Shown in pieces: positions 27,378-54,477 of a DNA stretch of 64,000 bases. Numbering within the stretch: position 1 is the stretch's first letter; each line of letters opens with the position of its first letter. The stretch is from a phage. The translations under genes were made by a program, and so were the position numbers. The notes under the pieces are model-generated. The model saw nothing but the letters and a program-made list of their open reading frames with translations, made no database searches and was not told where the DNA came from. The DNA lies in sequence record OZ335958.1; one strand, given 5' to 3'.

Positions 27378-27405
27378 TTTCTGTTCCTCCGTAGTTGATA
27401 GGGTA

Positions 27406-27435
27406 ATAGTACCACAGAGGAACAGTCTTGTAAAC
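27406..27435 (-). promoter_or_regulatory. T4 early-type promoter
   Basis: Minus-strand GTTTAC (27435..27430), 18 bp, TACTAT (27411..27406). Confidence 0.5.
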
Positions 27436-28810: not shown

Positions 28811-28846
28811 TTTATTCTCCAATTTCACATTTGTTTTGATAGGGTA

Positions 28847-28876
28847 ATAGTATCACACTACTACCCTACTGTAAAC
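28847..28876 (-). promoter_or_regulatory. T4 early-type promoter
   Basis: Minus-strand GTTTAC (28876..28871), 18 bp, TACTAT (28852..28847). Confidence 0.5.
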
Positions 28877-29323: not shown

Positions 29324-29353
29324 ATAGTACCATAAAGCTTTATGCTTGTAAAC
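29324..29353 (-). promoter_or_regulatory. T4 early-type promoter
   Basis: Minus-strand GTTTAC (29353..29348), 18 bp, TACTAT (29329..29324). Confidence 0.5.
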
Positions 29354-29382
29354 CGTTTTGTGAAAAAATTTTGAAATAAAAA

Positions 29383-33921: not shown

Positions 33922-34503
33922 CTAACCGAGCTTTTTAGTTAATTCATTCCAATGTTTTCTACACAAAGAAACATAAATTTCATCACCAATACAGATTTGA
34001 TTACCTTCTTTAACCGGTGTTCCATCTTCCATTAATCGAGCTGTCATAATAGCCTTTTTACCACAATGACAAACTGCCTTTAGTTCAATAAGTTTATCTG
34101 CAATCGCCAAAAGTTCTTTAGAACCTTCAAATAATTTTCCAGCGAAATCAGTCCTTAGTCCATAAGCCATAACAGGAACACTATATGTATCAACAATTCG
34201 GCTTAATTGATGCACCTGTTTAGTTTTTAAAAACTGGGCTTCATCTACAAATACACAATGAATATCTTTTTGTGCTTCAGCCCATTTATAGAACTCAAAA
34301 ATATCCATATCATCCGTAATAATATTCGCTTCCTGCTTAATTCCAATGCGAGAAACGACTTCACAGACAGAATCACGAGTATCAATAGCAGGCTTAAGAA
34401 CTAATACACCCATTCCGCGTTCTTTATAATTATGTGCAGCAGTCAAAAGAGAAGCAGATTTTCCAGCATTCATTGCTGCGTAAGTAAAAATTAAACTCGC
34501 CAT
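33922..34503 (-). CDS. tk: thymidine kinase
   Basis: 193 aa, P-loop AAMNAGKS, C-terminal Zn cysteines; recognised as T4 Tk. Confidence 0.9.
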   Translation of the reverse strand: MASLIFTYAAMNAGKSASLLTAAHNYKERGMGVLVLKPAIDTRDSVCEVVSRIGIKQEANIITDDMDIFEFYKWAEAQKDIHCVFVDEAQFLKTKQVHQLSRIVDTYSVPVMAYGLRTDFAGKLFEGSKELLAIADKLIELKAVCHCGKKAIMTARLMEDGTPVKEGNQICIGDEIYVSLCRKHWNELTKKLG

Positions 34504-34512
34504 ATCACCTTC

Positions 34513-34698
34513 TTAAAGCGTATTCACATAAGCTATTAATTCGTTTTCTTTCTTATCAAACCGATCAGCAAATTCTTCTTGCTGATCGGGAGATAGCGGG
34601 CCGTATTCATCATAAAAGGTGTTTGCTTCTGTATGCTCATCTAGAAGTTCATGGATAAGCTCAAACAATTTATCTTTTTGTTCTTTACTCAGACTCAT
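34513..34698 (-). CDS. hypothetical acidic protein
   Basis: 61-aa ORF. Confidence 0.4.
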   Translation of the reverse strand: MSLSKEQKDKLFELIHELLDEHTEANTFYDEYGPLSPDQQEEFADRFDKKENELIAYVNTL

Positions 34699-34864
34699 AT
34701 ATTAATTTCCAGGAGTTTTAAAATAATTCGCTTTTGCTTAAATATTTCCATAGTTAAATGACCAGTATCTTTTTGACCGATTCCAATGGCAAAACCTTTA
34801 TTGACAGCGAGTTCAATTAAATTATCAAGCTCACGTAACACTTCATATTGTAACTCAAAACTAT

Positions 34865-35077
34865 TCATTTCGGTTTACCTTCTTTAACGAAATCGGGATA
34901 AGGATAAAATCCTGAATAAAATCCTTCACCTTTATGATTGATGCATCCTTTATTAGAACAATAGCACCAATAATCGAAATCACAAGCCATTTCATCATTA
35001 CATAAAGCAAAAACAACTGGCCATTCACACTTTTCGCAGTGGGCATTTTTAAGAATACTTGTTTGGCTCATAACCAT
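34865..35077 (-). CDS. cysteine-rich small protein
   Basis: Track ORF starts at TTG 35092; ATG at 35077; about 10 Cys (CEKCEW..CND..C..CYC..C); 5 prime part lies in duplication copy 1. Confidence 0.45.
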   Translation of the reverse strand: MVMSQTSILKNAHCEKCEWPVVFALCNDEMACDFDYWCYCSNKGCINHKGEGFYSGFYPYPDFVKEGKPK

Positions 35078-35503
35078 GTAACCTTTAAACAATATTCTTC
35101 TACGTGTTGTTTACGACCTTTCTTATCAATAAAGGTATATTCAACGAATGTTCCAATATAGTCTTTATCTACACCATGTGGACTATTAATTGGGCATTTA
35201 GTACGGCAAATGCGTTCCCATTGACGAATAATTTCCACTTTGTTTTTAGTCATTACATAAAGCAAAAACAACTGGCCATTCACACTTTTCGCAGTGGGCA
35301 TTTTTAAGAATACTTGTTTGGCTCATAACCATGTAACCTTTAAACAATATTCTTCTACGTGTTGTTTACGACCTTTCTTATCAATAAAGGTATATTCAAC
35401 GAATGTTCCAATATAGTCTTTATCTACACCATGTGGACTATTAATTGGGCATTTAGTACGGCAAATGCGTTCCCATTGACGAATAATTTCCACTTTGTTT
35501 TTA
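34994..35503. repeat. perfect tandem duplication, 2 x 255 bp
   Basis: 34994..35248 and 35249..35503 are identical on base-by-base reading. Confidence 0.9.
35068..35301 (-). pseudogene. chimeric ORF created by the duplication
   Basis: 77-aa ORF; first 17 aa from the alternate frame of the cysteine-rich gene 5 prime region, remainder identical to residues 12-70 of ORF 35323..35535. Confidence 0.55.
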
Positions 35504-35535
35504 GGATCAAACGGATGCGGGTAATGTACTTTCAT
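35323..35535 (-). CDS. hypothetical protein (intact copy of duplicated gene)
   Basis: 70 aa, MKVHYPHPFDPKNKVEIIRQWERICRTKCPINSPHGVDKDY; ATG start. Confidence 0.5.
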   Translation of the reverse strand: MKVHYPHPFDPKNKVEIIRQWERICRTKCPINSPHGVDKDYIGTFVEYTFIDKKGRKQHVEEYCLKVTWL

Positions 35536-35986
35536 AATCCATCACTATTAAATCAATATCAGGAGTAAACATGTCGATTAATTTAGAAACCTTATCCCAA
35601 TCGCCGCCAGCAATACCGCAACCTATACGTGGAATGTAAATTACTGGTTTAAACAAAAGGGTTTCTGCCTGTAGATTTAATTCTATCATGCAGTTTACTA
35701 AAGCACCATAATCAAGATTAGGACCCGGTTCGTATTGTGTATACAGGTTATAGCATATACCAAATCCCGTAGGGCTATGTTTAAAAACAATAGACATATC
35801 GCCTAATTTATCACGAGAACCGTACTCGGTAGTGGTTTTATCTATTTCTAAAATTTTGGGATAGGCTCTTGCTAATTGACCCGCTACGCCAGAGCCCATT
35901 GTGTGGAAGCAATTGCACCCGTGCGCAATAATATTACCTTGAAGAAATAGGGCGACAATATCGCCCTTGATATATTTTACAATCAT
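35507..35986 (-). CDS. macro-domain protein (ADP-ribose binding/hydrolase family)
   Basis: 159 aa; motifs GDI...QGNIIAHGCNC...GSGVAG...GCGIAGG typical of macro domains. Confidence 0.6.
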   Translation of the reverse strand: MIVKYIKGDIVALFLQGNIIAHGCNCFHTMGSGVAGQLARAYPKILEIDKTTTEYGSRDKLGDMSIVFKHSPTGFGICYNLYTQYEPGPNLDYGALVNCMIELNLQAETLLFKPVIYIPRIGCGIAGGDWDKVSKLIDMFTPDIDLIVMDYESTLPASV

Positions 35987-36330
35987 CTAGTACTCAATCC
36001 TCGATTATAAGAATCTACTAAACGGTCAACCATTGAATGACAAGCGGCTTTATCTTTCTCCTCCGCAACTGAACATTCTAAAGTATTCCACTTTTTAGCA
36101 TATCGTTTTAACAATGTATCATTTTTGTATCTGCTTGATTTATCTCTTTCTCCGTCTTTATATGCATATATTAATTTCTGCGCAAATTCAGCTTGGCATG
36201 CTTTATTTTTCCCACAATAATCCGCGGCAGTACGGTTTACATACTCTCTAATTTCAGTATATGATGTATCTGCTAACGCAGAAGCAGAAAATGAAATTAA
36301 TCCTATACATAAAACCAAAATTTTAGTCAT
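35983..36330 (-). CDS. secreted small protein (vs position)
   Basis: 115 aa with signal peptide MTKILVLCIGLISFSASALA. Confidence 0.45.
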   Translation of the reverse strand: MTKILVLCIGLISFSASALADTSYTEIREYVNRTAADYCGKNKACQAEFAQKLIYAYKDGERDKSSRYKNDTLLKRYAKKWNTLECSVAEEKDKAACHSMVDRLVDSYNRGLSTR

Positions 36331-36868
36331 TTACTATTTCCAAAAGTTTATTATTTTTAAGGTAATTAGCCTTTTCTAGGACTTCAGAAGCATATTTAGA
36401 ACCTGCTTTAACATTCCATCCCGAATTATAAGAGGATATCGCCTTTCTTATATCGCCCTTATGTATATTTAACCAATAAGAAAGTTCAATGTACGCCCAG
36501 GAAGCTGAATTGGACCGTTTATTCAACATTCTTTTTATTTCAGCATCGGTCATATTATAACCAAGTTCCTTAACTCTTGCTCGCATAGTAGGCAAATAAT
36601 TTTGGAACATTCCATAGGCATGATGCTTTGGTTTAGATTTTAAATTAACTCCGGCAGAGCTTTCTTGCCATAAAATAGCAGCCATTATATGACCTAATCC
36701 GCTCTTGTGGATATTTTTGTGTGTTTTATATTTTCCATCCTTAGAAAATTGTTCCCCGAATTGATACGCGTAACGCATGTTATCGAGTTGGACATTACTG
36801 AAAGTATGCTCGGAGCTATGCGCCATCATTGAAATGGCCAATAGACCAGCGAGTAGTGCTTTTCTCAT
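36323..36868 (-). CDS. periplasmic lytic-transglycosylase-like protein
   Basis: 181 aa, signal peptide, SLT-like motifs WQESS, GMFQ, SYNSGW. Confidence 0.5.
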   Translation of the reverse strand: MRKALLAGLLAISMMAHSSEHTFSNVQLDNMRYAYQFGEQFSKDGKYKTHKNIHKSGLGHIMAAILWQESSAGVNLKSKPKHHAYGMFQNYLPTMRARVKELGYNMTDAEIKRMLNKRSNSASWAYIELSYWLNIHKGDIRKAISSYNSGWNVKAGSKYASEVLEKANYLKNNKLLEIVND

Positions 36869-36875
36869 GCTTACC

Positions 36876-37337
36876 TCATTGAGTTTTAATTACTGCTTTA
36901 GAAGCCTTTCCTGGTAAACGACGACTGTTGATAATTGCCATCCTGCATTGAAGCGACGGGTCTTTGAACTTCGCATTAGGTTTACAAACTGTAAATCCAA
37001 GCCAAAGATTTCCATCTGTGATTTCTAAACGTCCAGGACGGTATTCAACCCCATCAATAAAATCCTCATCAATGTCAGGACGCGGAGGCATACTCAGGAA
37101 TTCATTAACTTCTAAAACATGGTCTTTTATTTTGTGGAATAATTCAAAAACATATGTCTCATCAATCTCCCGTTGAATTGCACGATCAAGAAGATGCTGA
37201 GAATATTTTAGATGAAACGATGAGACCCCTGCTGCTTTTGATGCCTCACGAATCTCATTGTTAATTTGACGAAACTCCGACTCAAAGTGACGACGAAGCT
37301 TATTTCGACGGATAAAAACTTCTGTGTTGATAGTCAT
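36876..37337 (-). CDS. regB: site-specific endoribonuclease RegB
   Basis: 153-aa ORF recognised as T4 RegB by length, position and sequence. Confidence 0.8.
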   Translation of the reverse strand: MTINTEVFIRRNKLRRHFESEFRQINNEIREASKAAGVSSFHLKYSQHLLDRAIQREIDETYVFELFHKIKDHVLEVNEFLSMPPRPDIDEDFIDGVEYRPGRLEITDGNLWLGFTVCKPNAKFKDPSLQCRMAIINSRRLPGKASKAVIKTQ

Positions 37338-44320: not shown

Positions 44321-44350
44321 ATAGTACCATGGAAGAACAGGGATGTAAAC
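44321..44350 (-). promoter_or_regulatory. T4 early-type promoter
   Basis: Minus-strand GTTTAC (44350..44345), 18 bp, TACTAT (44326..44321). Confidence 0.5.
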
Positions 44351-44482
44351 CGTTTTGTGAAAAAATTTTTAAAAAGTTTTATGGAATTCTGGGGCAGGGA
44401 GGGGCAATTAAAAGGTAGGATAATATATTATAAAGGGTATAAACTAAATGATGCCTAGAGAGGCCCGGAAAGGCCTAGATAC

Positions 44483-45743: not shown

Positions 45744-45820
45744 TGGTCGAGGCAGTAGGGATCGAACCTACGACCCAGGACTTAGAAGGTCCTTGCTCTT
45801 CCTTCTGAGCTATGCCTCGG
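45744..45820 (-). tRNA. tRNA-Arg (anticodon UCU)
   Basis: Cloverleaf folded by hand; anticodon loop CUUCUAA; CCA encoded. Confidence 0.8.
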
Positions 45821-45823
45821 ATT

Positions 45824-45898
45824 TGGCGGACGTGATAGGATTCGAACCTATAACCAATCGCTTAACAGGCGATCGCTCTGCCATTGAGCTACACATCC
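45824..45898 (-). tRNA. tRNA-Asn (anticodon GUU)
   Basis: Cloverleaf folded by hand; anticodon stem AUCGC/GCGAU, loop CUGUUAA; T-loop UUCGAAU; CCA encoded. Confidence 0.65.
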
Positions 45899-45903
45899 AA
45901 ATT

Positions 45904-45989
45904 GGTGGGGAGTGATGGAGTCGAACCACCCGAGTCGCAATGACAATGGATTTACAGTCCACACCGCTACCTCTACGGGATAACTCCCC
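45904..45989 (-). tRNA. tRNA-Tyr (anticodon GUA), type II
   Basis: 86 nt; anticodon loop CUGUAAA; long variable arm; CCA encoded. Confidence 0.65.
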
Positions 45990-45997
45990 AAATTAAT

Positions 45998-46073
45998 TTG
46001 GTGGCCCTGGGTGGAATTGAACCACCATCTGGCGATTATGAGTCGCTTGCTTGAACCTTCCAGCTACAGGGCC
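45998..46073 (-). tRNA. tRNA with CAU anticodon (Ile2-type or Met)
   Basis: Anticodon loop CUCAUAA; T-arm GGUGG-UUCAAUU-CCACC; CCA encoded. Confidence 0.65.
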
Positions 46074-46074
46074 T

Positions 46075-46150
46075 TGGTGCTGATTGACGGAATCGAACCG
46101 CCGACCTTCTCATTACAAGTGAGTTGCTCTACCTACTGAGCTAAATCAGC
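46075..46150 (-). tRNA. tRNA-Thr (anticodon UGU)
   Basis: Anticodon loop CUUGUAA; 1 nt from the preceding tRNA. Confidence 0.75.
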
Positions 46151-46155
46151 AAAAC

Positions 46156-46245
46156 TGGCGGAGGCGATAGGATTTGAACCTATGAGTCGCCGGAGCGACT
46201 GCCGGTTTTCAAGACCGGTGCATTAAACCACTCTGCCACGCCTCC
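46156..46245 (-). tRNA. tRNA-Ser (anticodon UGA), type II
   Basis: 90 nt; anticodon loop CUUGAAA; sequence recognised as T4 tRNA-Ser. Confidence 0.85.
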
Positions 46246-46247
46246 AG

Positions 46248-46321
46248 TCTCCATACAAGGATTTGAACCTTGGACCTCCTGATCCCAAATCAGGCGCTCT
46301 ACCAAACTGAGCTACACGGAG
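46248..46321 (-). tRNA. tRNA-Pro (anticodon UGG), CCA not encoded
   Basis: Anticodon loop UUUGGGA; 2 nt upstream of tRNA-Ser (dimeric precursor arrangement). Confidence 0.75.
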
Positions 46322-46331
46322 TAAATTAAAT

Positions 46332-46405
<74 letters not shown>

Positions 46406-46410
46406 AAATT

Positions 46411-46497
46411 TGGTGCGAGAAGTGGGACTCGAACCCACAAGGAAATCATTCCGCAGCATTTTAAGTGCTGTGCCTTTACCAATTTGACCATTCTCGC
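46411..46497 (-). tRNA. tRNA-Leu (anticodon UAA), type II
   Basis: 87 nt; anticodon loop CUUAAAA; long variable arm. Confidence 0.8.
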
Positions 46498-46498
46498 G

Positions 46499-46571
46499 CT
46501 GGGAATAAAGGACTCGAACCTTTGCATCCTGGAATCAAAATCCAGTGCCTTACCAACTTGGCTAATTCCCA
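46499..46571 (-). tRNA. tRNA-Gln (anticodon UUG), CCA not encoded
   Basis: U1-A72 acceptor pair, anticodon loop UUUUGAU; 1 nt from tRNA-Leu (Gln-Leu dimer). Confidence 0.75.
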
Positions 46572-48345: not shown

Positions 48346-48382
48346 TTTAGTTTCCATTCGATTGTTTTGTTTTGATAGGGTA

Positions 48383-48412
48383 ATAGTATCACAACTAAAA
48401 CCCTATGTAAAC
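48383..48412 (-). promoter_or_regulatory. T4 early-type promoter
   Basis: Minus-strand GTTTAC (48412..48407), 18 bp, TACTAT (48388..48383); 7-bp inverted repeat flanks the -10. Confidence 0.5.
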
Positions 48413-48424
48413 AACTTTGTGAAA

Positions 48425-48682
48425 TTATTTTAAATCTTCTAATCGTTTCTTCATCTTAGAACCATTTTTAGCAATTTCTCCTGCATCGGAGCATAATGCT
48501 AAAAGTGCTTTAACTTTCGTTTGGTCTCCTTTAAAAGATGAAGGATCTACTGCAGCAGCAAGTTCTTTAATACGAGAGAAAAGACGCTCAGCTTCAGCTA
48601 AAGCCATTCCAAGCTTTACTTCCATACCGTGGGAAGATTCAGTGATAGTAGTTTTTGCAGCAAACTCTTTGAAAGTTTTCAT
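48425..48682 (-). CDS. internal-protein-like small protein
   Basis: 85 aa, N-terminus MKTFKEFAAKTTITES (targeting-sequence-like), helical Ala/Lys-rich body. Confidence 0.45.
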   Translation of the reverse strand: MKTFKEFAAKTTITESSHGMEVKLGMALAEAERLFSRIKELAAAVDPSSFKGDQTKVKALLALCSDAGEIAKNGSKMKKRLEDLK

Positions 48683-48702: not shown

Positions 48703-48742
48703 TGATGAGGTAATAGTATCACTACCTCATCAGCATGTAAAC
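48703..48742 (-). promoter_or_regulatory. early-type promoter with 10-bp perfect inverted repeat around the -10
   Basis: Arms TGATGAGGTA (48703..48712) and TACCTCATCA (48724..48733); TACTAT at 48718..48713; GTTTAC at 48742..48737. Confidence 0.5.
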
Positions 48743-48754
48743 AACTTTGTGAAA

Positions 48755-49439
<685 letters not shown>

Positions 49440-52175: not shown

Positions 52176-52766
52176 ATGCTCTTTACATTTTTTGATCCGA
52201 TTGAATATGCGGCCAAAACGGTGAATAAAAACGCGCCGACTATTCCTATGACAGATATTTTTAGAAACTATAAAGACTATTTCAAACGTGCTCTTGCAGG
52301 ATACCGCTTACGCACTTATTATATTAAAGGTTCACCACGTCCGGAAGAATTAGCAAATGCTATATATGGAAATCCGCAGTTGTATTGGGTTTTATTGATG
52401 TGTAATGATAATTATGATCCGTATTATGGATGGATTACTTCGCAAGAAGCTGCTTATCAAGCATCTATACAAAAATACAAAAACGTAGGTGGAGACCAAA
52501 TAGTATATCATGTGAATGAGAACGGTGAAAAATTTTATAATTTAATATCATACGATGATAATCCATATGTTTGGTATGACAAAGGCGATAAAGCTAGAAA
52601 ATATCCTCAATATGAAGGAGCACTTGCTGCGGTCGATACGTATGAAGCTGCTGTTCTTGAAAATGAAAAACTTCGTCAAATAAAAATAATAGCAAAATCA
52701 GACATCAATTCATTTATGAACGACCTTATACGTATAATGGAGAAATCTTATGGAAATGATAAGTAA
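52176..52766 (+). CDS. 53: baseplate wedge protein
   Basis: 196-aa ORF, T4 gp53 length, first gene of plus-strand baseplate operon. Confidence 0.85.
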   Translation: MLFTFFDPIEYAAKTVNKNAPTIPMTDIFRNYKDYFKRALAGYRLRTYYIKGSPRPEELANAIYGNPQLYWVLLMCNDNYDPYYGWITSQEAAYQASIQKYKNVGGDQIVYHVNENGEKFYNLISYDDNPYVWYDKGDKARKYPQYEGALAAVDTYEAAVLENEKLRQIKIIAKSDINSFMNDLIRIMEKSYGNDK

Positions 52767-54477
52767 TAACCTTAATTGGTTTGTTGGTGTTGTTGAAGAT
52801 AGAATGGACCCATTAAAATTAGGTCGTGTTCGTGTTCGTGTAGTTGGTCTGCATCCACCTCAAAGAGCACAAGGCGACGTAATGGGTATTCCAACTGATA
52901 AATTACCATGGATGTCAGTTATTCAACCTATAACTTCTGCAGCAATGTCTGGAATTGGAGGCTCCGTTACTGGTCCGGTAGAAGGAACTAGAGTCTATGG
53001 TCATTTTTTAGACAAATGGAAAACTAACGGAATTGTCCTTGGCACGTATGGTGGAATAGTTCGCGAAAAACCTAATAGACTTGAAGGATTTTCTGATCCG
53101 ACTGGACAGTATCCTAGACGTCTAGGAAATGATACTAACGTATTAAACCAAGGCGGAGAAGTAGGATATGATTCGTCTTCTAATATTATCCAAGATAGCA
53201 ATCTAGACACTGCGATAAATCCTGATGATAGACCGCTATCAGAAATTCCAACTGATGATAATCCAAATATGTCAATGGCTGAAATGCTTCGCCGCGATGA
53301 AGGATTAAGACTAAAAGTTTATTGGGATACTGAAGGATATCCGACAATTGGTATTGGTCATCTTATCATGAAGCAGCCAGTGCGTGATATGACCCAAATT
53401 AATAAAGTTTTATCAAAACAAGTTGGTCGTGAAATTACCGGAAATCCAGGTTCTATTACAATGGAAGAATCGGTAACTTTATTTGAACGCGATTTGGCTG
53501 ATATGCAACGTGACATTAAATCACATTCTAAAGTTGGCCCAGTTTGGCAAGCAGTTAATCGTTCTCGTCAAATGGCATTAGAAAATATGGCATTTCAGAT
53601 GGGCGTTGGCGGTGTAGCTAAATTTAACACAATGTTAACTGCTATGTTAGCCGGAGATTGGGAAAAGGCATATAAAGCTGGTCGTGATTCATTGTGGTAT
53701 CAACAAACAAAAGGCCGTGCATCTCGTGTTACCATGATTATTCTTACAGGTAATTTGGAATCATACGGTATTGAAGTGAAAACACCGTCTAGGTCTTTGT
53801 CAGCAATGGCTGCTACTGTAGCAAAGTCTTCTGATCCAGCTGACCCTCCTATTCCGAATGATTCGAGAATTTTATTTAAAGAACCTGTTTCTTCATATAA
53901 AGGTGAATATCCGTATGTTCATACAATGGAAACTGAAAGCGGTCATATTCAGGAATTTGATGATACCCCTGGGCAAGAACGATACAGATTAGTTCATCCG
54001 ACTGGAACATATGAGGAAGTATCACCCTCAGGAAGAAGAACAAGAAAAACTGTTGATAATTTGTATGATATAACAAATGCTGATGGTAATTTTTTGGTAG
54101 CCGGTGATAAAAAGACTAACGTCGGTGGGTCAGAAATTTATTACAACATGGATAATCGTCTCCACCAAATAGATGGAAGCAATACAATATTTGTACGTGG
54201 CGATGAAACTAAGACGGTTGAAGGTAATGGAACTATCCTAGTCAAAGGTAATGTTACTATTGTAGTTGAAGGTAATGCTGACATTACAGTTAAAGGAGAT
54301 GCTACCACTTTAGTTGAAGGAAATCAGACTAATACAGTAAATGGAAATCTTTCTTGGAAAGTTGCTGGTACAGTTGATTGGGACGTTGGTGGTGATTGGA
54401 CAGAAAAAATGGCATCTATGAGTTCTATTTCATCTGGTCAATACACAATTGATGGATCGAGGATTGACATTGGCTAA
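52750..54477 (+). CDS. 5: baseplate hub and tail lysozyme (cell-puncturing device)
   Basis: 575-aa ORF; internal lysozyme domain EMLRRDEGLRLKVYWDTEGYPTIGIGHL; C-terminal VxGxxxV beta-helix repeats. Confidence 0.95.
   Translation: MEMISNNLNWFVGVVEDRMDPLKLGRVRVRVVGLHPPQRAQGDVMGIPTDKLPWMSVIQPITSAAMSGIGGSVTGPVEGTRVYGHFLDKWKTNGIVLGTYGGIVREKPNRLEGFSDPTGQYPRRLGNDTNVLNQGGEVGYDSSSNIIQDSNLDTAINPDDRPLSEIPTDDNPNMSMAEMLRRDEGLRLKVYWDTEGYPTIGIGHLIMKQPVRDMTQINKVLSKQVGREITGNPGSITMEESVTLFERDLADMQRDIKSHSKVGPVWQAVNRSRQMALENMAFQMGVGGVAKFNTMLTAMLAGDWEKAYKAGRDSLWYQQTKGRASRVTMIILTGNLESYGIEVKTPSRSLSAMAATVAKSSDPADPPIPNDSRILFKEPVSSYKGEYPYVHTMETESGHIQEFDDTPGQERYRLVHPTGTYEEVSPSGRRTRKTVDNLYDITNADGNFLVAGDKKTNVGGSEIYYNMDNRLHQIDGSNTIFVRGDETKTVEGNGTILVKGNVTIVVEGNADITVKGDATTLVEGNQTNTVNGNLSWKVAGTVDWDVGGDWTEKMASMSSISSGQYTIDGSRIDIG

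Follow-up and report, generated by a model that had tools for sequence, protein, structure and literature searches.

The early region of a Tequatrovirus, a T4-like phage of enterobacteria, carries a base-perfect tandem duplication of 255 bp in its deposited sequence. The second copy is probably absent from the phage DNA, having been left over when the overlapping ends of an assembled contig were joined without trimming. The window analyzed is this early region, a stretch of 64,000 nucleotides from sequence record OZ335958.1, and all positions given below are those of the window.

Anatomy of the repeat and its locus

Tandem Repeats Finder placed a tandem array at 34995-35504, with a period of 255, 2.0 copies, 100% matches and 0 indels, and a separate repeat search recovered this pair as well. 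A base-by-base test found s[i]=s[i+255] to be true for exactly i=34995..35249, giving copies at 34995-35249 and 35250-35504. The earlier note had correctly described a perfect 255-bp duplication, but its coordinates were off by one: the strings at 34994-35248 and 35249-35503 differ from each other. Identity at period 255 continues for exactly 255 positions and stops at a mismatched base on either side. Since the run extends over just one period and into neither flank, microhomology at the junction is zero. Identity over 255 bases by chance is excluded, and no other exact direct repeat within the 64-kb window exceeds about 35 nt.

Gene order at the locus was taken from the annotation of Shigella phage vB_SsoM_113 together with Pfam and PHROG scans. 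These sources underlie all the genes listed here, with individual matches in brackets.

36876-37337, minus strand: regB
36323-36868, minus strand: vs.1
35983-36330, minus strand: vs
35507-35986, minus strand: tk.4, macro-domain protein of 159 aa (PF01661 Macro, E=1.3e-7; phrog_335)
35323-35535, minus strand: intact tk.3, 70 aa, DUF7202 (vB_SsoM_113 annotation; Pfam PF23832, E=3.7e-37)
35250-35504, no strand: copy 2 of the 255-bp unit (period 255, 100% identity); on the minus strand it reads as nt 32-213 of intact tk.3, then nt 1-77 of a truncated RB32ORF111c copy
35249-35250, no strand: novel junction, in which ...CCACTTTGTTTTTAG is followed directly by TCATTACATAAAGCA... (0 nt microhomology)
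34995-35249, no strand: copy 1 of the 255-bp unit (period 255, 100% identity); on the minus strand it reads as a 5'-truncated second tk.3 copy (nt 32-213; 35249..35068), then the first 77 nt of intact RB32ORF111c
34865-35071, minus strand: intact RB32ORF111c, 68 aa, cysteine-rich (annotation; Pfam PF23895 Phage_zn_bind, E=3e-29)
34695-34868, minus strand: RB32ORF110c
34513-34698, minus strand: tk.2-like DUF7438 gene
33922-34503, minus strand: tk

The repeat thus involves two small genes lying between tk and the macro-domain gene tk.4, a context that the earlier note had read correctly. In the direction of transcription tk.4 is directly upstream of tk.3 and outside the repeat, and tk.3 begins within the 3' end of tk.4. 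An ATGA overlap joins tk.3 to RB32ORF111c in the relatives with a single copy.

The 255-nt unit consists of nt 32-213 of tk.3 and nt 1-77 of RB32ORF111c, with the 4-nt overlap counted once. It therefore takes in 60 of the 70 tk.3 codons, more than the 3' two-thirds previously attributed to it, and holds gene fragments only, with no complete ORF. The two break points fall within codon 11 of tk.3 and within codon 26 of RB32ORF111c, ignoring gene boundaries. Read on the minus strand, the order is intact tk.3, truncated RB32ORF111c copy, 5'-truncated tk.3 copy and intact RB32ORF111c. One intact copy of each gene is thus retained despite the duplication. This discriminates nothing, since any real tandem duplication ending in two adjacent genes would leave both intact.

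Two reading frames are products of the duplication:

35246-35326, minus strand: truncated RB32ORF111c copy of 26 codons (MSQTSILKNAHCEKCEWPVVFALCND), then a TAA formed by the junction (from translation)
35068-35301, minus strand: 77-aa junction ORF (from the ORF list and translation)

The truncated RB32ORF111c copy retains its native start context, the ATGA overlap with the tk.3 stop codon. The 77-aa ORF is made up of 17 residues from an alternative RB32ORF111c frame, one junction codon (T) and tk.3 residues K12-L70. Its ATG is not preceded by anything resembling a Shine-Dalgarno sequence, and its product had no record in the protein and contig collections searched. The ORFs named in the earlier note were all present, namely the 70-aa frame at 35323-35535, the cysteine-rich frame ending at 34865 and the 77-aa frame at 35068-35301; two of them were described differently there. 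The cysteine-rich gene had been started at 35077, while relatives annotate 68 aa from the ATG at 35071, within the ATGA overlap. The chimeric 77-aa frame had been called a gene; with 17 out-of-frame residues, no ribosome-binding sequence and no protein record, it is an ORF without evidence as a gene, and judged from its sequence it appears badly placed for translation.

Scans for regulatory elements in 34400-36100 returned 3 promoter-like matches against 7.0 expected from shuffled sequence, and 2 terminator-like matches against 1.2 expected, neither of them inside the unit. An Rfam scan found nothing at the repeat locus, its only match in the window being a tRNA cluster some distance away. The idea that a promoter, terminator or RNA element in the unit made the duplication selectable was rejected on these grounds, the scan signals being at or below chance and Rfam being empty at the locus. 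The unit has no content selectable by dosage.

Relatives and searches for the junction

A megablast search with 34400-36100 matched 712 phage records, the best at 99.8% identity. The best 60 of these 712 all have a single copy, with a span of 1446 bp against the 1701-bp query; comparison with close relatives had been proposed in the earlier note as a check. Over 24 kb the best record is phage BW-1 (OR125554.1), which is 98.4% identical. Its BLAST alignment breaks exactly between 35249 and 35250, and one stretch of 255 bp in BW-1 is aligned on both sides of the break. When one copy was deleted, the locus became colinear, without indels, in an alignment with four close relatives. The unit itself matches, base for base, the one copy that PBM-1, UGKSEcP2 and vB_SsoM_113 carry.

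The junction was then sought directly. A 44-nt megablast probe centred on it gave 0 matches in 50,697 phage records, PLSDB plasmids and 5,426 E. coli genomes, and the exact 30-nt junction occurred 0 times in IMG/VR, JGI metagenome contigs and GTDB genomes. As positive controls, the two wild-type boundaries, probed with an equivalent design, were found in 146 and 215 phage records; the wild-type left boundary was found in just 1 IMG/VR contig and 2 metagenome contigs. Judged by these controls, the failure to find the junction is strong evidence as regards isolate genomes but weak as regards IMG/VR and metagenomes; for GTDB it is uncalibrated. A literature search found no description of a 255-bp duplication in a Tequatrovirus.

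The strain has further private features. Against its four closest relatives, private SNPs occur at 35542 and 35774 in tk.4 and at 34015, 34181 and 34221 in tk. The exact Tk.4, Tk, gp43, NrdD and gp5 proteins are absent from a collection of 15 billion proteins, and the exact gp6, gp7, Vs and Vs.1 proteins are present in it. Private proteins amid shared ones indicate a distinct mosaic strain that has not been sampled elsewhere.

Some differences from the comparison records concern other genes of the locus or their names. The vs gene has an in-frame 6-bp difference from BW-1 at 36278-36283 (minus strand), and its product Vs, the valyl-tRNA synthetase modifier, has 115 aa here and in most relatives and 113 aa in BW-1. 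Several BW-1 genes are misnamed: tk.3 (DUF7202) as 'ABC transporter ATP-binding protein', RB32ORF111c as 'tail assembly protein', RB32ORF110c as 'rI antiholin' and rI.1 as 'thymidine kinase'. The macro-domain protein Tk.4 is named 'phosphatase' or 'MazF family toxin-antitoxin system protein' in other records.

Origin of the second copy

Among the three explanations offered in the earlier note, the evidence favours an assembly artefact. T4-like genomes are circularly permuted, and assemblers therefore deliver them as a 'circle' with identical first and last bases. The identical ends are k bases long when a de Bruijn assembler is used and can approach a read length when an overlap assembler is used. 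If the contig were then closed or rotated, for example to T4 gene order, with both copies of the overlap kept, an internal perfect two-copy tandem repeat would result. A variant with the same root cause would be a linear record with identical ends that was read as a circle, the window having been drawn across those ends. Such an artefact would be expected to lie at an arbitrary position, to cut genes, to show no junction homology and to be missing from all relatives, a signature that matches the observation.

Identical contig ends are a standard sign of a closed viral genome. Complete viral genomes from MEGAHIT, IDBA-UD and metaSPAdes have been described with identical 5' and 3' ends (PMC5610896), and Tequatrovirus assemblies are commonly rearranged manually to reference gene order after assembly with MEGAHIT (PMC13390438). 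With a contig-end overlap, or false 'direct terminal repeat', the present repeat shares base-perfect identity, exactly two copies, an arbitrary position that cuts genes, absence of junction homology, restriction to one record and a length that is a plausible k (255). It differs in that the copies are adjacent inside the window and not at the two ends of a record. Adjacent internal copies require a further step, either closure or rotation without trimming or the reading of a linear record as a circle.

The upper k-mer limit of MEGAHIT is 255 (2^8-1), and the repeat length is odd and equal to this maximum k. The setting '--k-max 255' is in published use, including in a phage study. The match to the k-mer limit could be coincidental; a k=255 setting is unusual and requires reads of at least 255 nt.

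Compared with BW-1, the window has 0 coding frameshifts, and its isolated 1-bp indels are all intergenic. This clean consensus points to short-read or polished data. A perfect 255-bp tandem pair could be legitimately resolved with short reads only if individual reads were well over 255 nt, and a resolved 255-bp duplication would be credible if the genome came from a long-read assembly.

Other phage records show or suggest assembly problems. Tequatrovirus records of implausible length include KNP5 (193,624 bp), BEU50 (193,190 bp) and the 'complete genome' of PBM-1 (121,301 bp), and contigs of about 353 kb carrying T4-like proteins also exist. Redundant or incomplete assemblies thus seem common in Tequatrovirus, which raises the prior for end-overlap artefacts. 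In the Klebsiella phage Tokugawa, an internal 79-bp repeat from short-read data was proved by Sanger sequencing to be an artefact and was removed (PMC10438801). That repeat resembles the present one as a short perfect repeat inside a phage genome made by assembly, an origin that we infer in the present case. It differs in length, in having been validated by Sanger sequencing and in belonging to a T7-like group with true terminal repeats (PMC10438801).

Three other sources of the repeat were considered and rejected. Error-prone long-read assembly is contradicted by the 0 coding frameshifts against BW-1 and by the intergenic location of the single-base indels. A plasmid single-crossover or engineering scar was dismissed as there is no foreign DNA between the copies. 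True terminal repeats were rejected because T4-type phages package their DNA by headful, without fixed ends.

It is possible, if unlikely, that the duplication is genuine, a very recent and near-neutral event in the phage stock that arose by illegitimate (homology-independent) recombination or by template switching between sister genomes during replication. The duplication is present in the sequence as given, its zero divergence is compatible with a recent event, the phage would be viable with its one intact copy each of tk.3 and RB32ORF111c, and a private mutation is conceivable in a distinct, otherwise unsampled strain. T4 also forms tandem duplications and segmental amplifications readily (PMC9391042). 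The rII duplications and the Hp17 and dmd-tifA amplifications of T4 are, like the present repeat, head-to-tail, in the early region, of zero divergence and expected to be unstable (PMC9391042). Those events, however, have junction homologies that are typically 6-10 bp (dmd-tifA) or 2-10 bp (rII and other loci), span 0.7 kb to several kb and so take in entire genes under selection, and frequently exceed 2 copies with compensating deletions alongside (PMC9391042). The present repeat has 0 bp of homology, is 255 bp long, includes no entire gene and stands at 2.0 copies; neither the 2-10 bp of boundary homology nor a complete dosage-selected gene or regulatory element was found. Homology-free illegitimate joins in T4 are atypical, yet possible. 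Also weighing against a genuine event are its confinement to one genome, none of the 146-215 phage records with wild-type boundary sequences having it, the coincidence of its length with an assembler constant, the lack of selectable content within the unit, and the difficulty that a perfect 255-bp tandem pair would pose for correct assembly from short reads.

Were the duplication real, its products would be a 26-aa N-terminal zinc-binding fragment coupled natively to tk.3 and perhaps the 77-aa ORF, at a low level of translation. The 26-aa peptide, with half a zinc site, would be the likeliest new product to be expressed, to go by its retained native coupled start. We consider it unlikely that a homology-independent duplication was caught just after arising, with a stand-alone 26-residue peptide, translationally coupled to tk.3, and a tk.3 variant with a new N-terminus as its products beside the macro-domain gene. 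A real duplication would be expected to be unstable, with homologous recombination between the copies giving a heterogeneous stock. T4 recombines at a high rate, and by an estimate from classical T4 mapping a 255-bp direct repeat would be lost at roughly the percent level per infection cycle.

Selection is a very improbable cause. Under the 'accordion' model, the duplication would have been selected for raised expression or for a useful new protein, such as a counter-defence factor. T4 does escape defence systems through amplification in its early region (PMC9391042), and the locus lies in the variable early region, adjoining the macro-domain gene. Yet the unit lacks any complete ORF, its promoter signals do not exceed chance, the copy number is just two and boundary microhomology is absent. 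The chimeric ORF has no ribosome-binding site and opens with 17 residues read out of frame. Neither the junction nor the chimeric protein occurs in any other phage or metagenome searched. The positive selection for amplification suggested in the earlier note is therefore not borne out, with no complete gene, promoter and terminator signals not above chance, and 2.0 copies.

If the second copy is an artefact, the value of recognizing it is curatorial. In that case 255 bases of the record, and as many as two of its small ORFs, would be spurious and would spread into protein databases and Tequatrovirus pangenome analyses. The artefact has a recognizable signature: a perfect repeat, in two copies, with no microhomology, of k-like length and in one genome only. 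A real duplication would instead capture in miniature the way in which gene fragments and fusions arise in the variable early regions of T4-type phages, with no obvious selected function, and would offer a hypervariable region starting material for new small early proteins. It would then be of modest specialist interest, as the ready duplication and deletion of sequence by T4 is already known. Neither reading would surprise a specialist, to whom assembler overlaps and T4 duplications are both familiar.

Other repeats and features of the window

Apart from the 255-bp pair, the only exact repeats in the window are dispersed pairs of 26-33 nt:

2421-2453 and 27403-27435
28830-28857 and 48366-48393
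29347-29372 and 44344-44369
48405-48436 and 48735-48766

Read on the minus strand, they are T4-type early promoters (…TTTCACAAAACGGTTTACA…17 nt…GGTACTAT…) of the form GTTTACA...TACTAT. These promoter repeats could serve as substrates for real recombination, unlike the 255-bp junction.

Imperfect tandem repeats were found at 54221-54324, as two overlapping arrays with a 24-bp period and 71-81% matches. They lie inside an ORF at 52750-54477 (plus strand, 575 aa) which, by position and length, we take to resemble the T4 gp5 tail lysozyme/needle protein. The C-terminal beta-helix of T4 gp5 is built from 8-residue repeats, and the 24-bp arrays probably represent ordinary periodicity at the protein level.

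The tRNA cluster detected by Rfam extends over 45744-46571 (minus strand) and contains 10 genes (Arg, Asn, Tyr, Met-CAT, Thr, Ser, Pro, Gly, Leu and Gln). The tRNA-Tyr gene scores just above the Rfam threshold (30.2 vs 29 bits), and the gene set is identical to that of BW-1.
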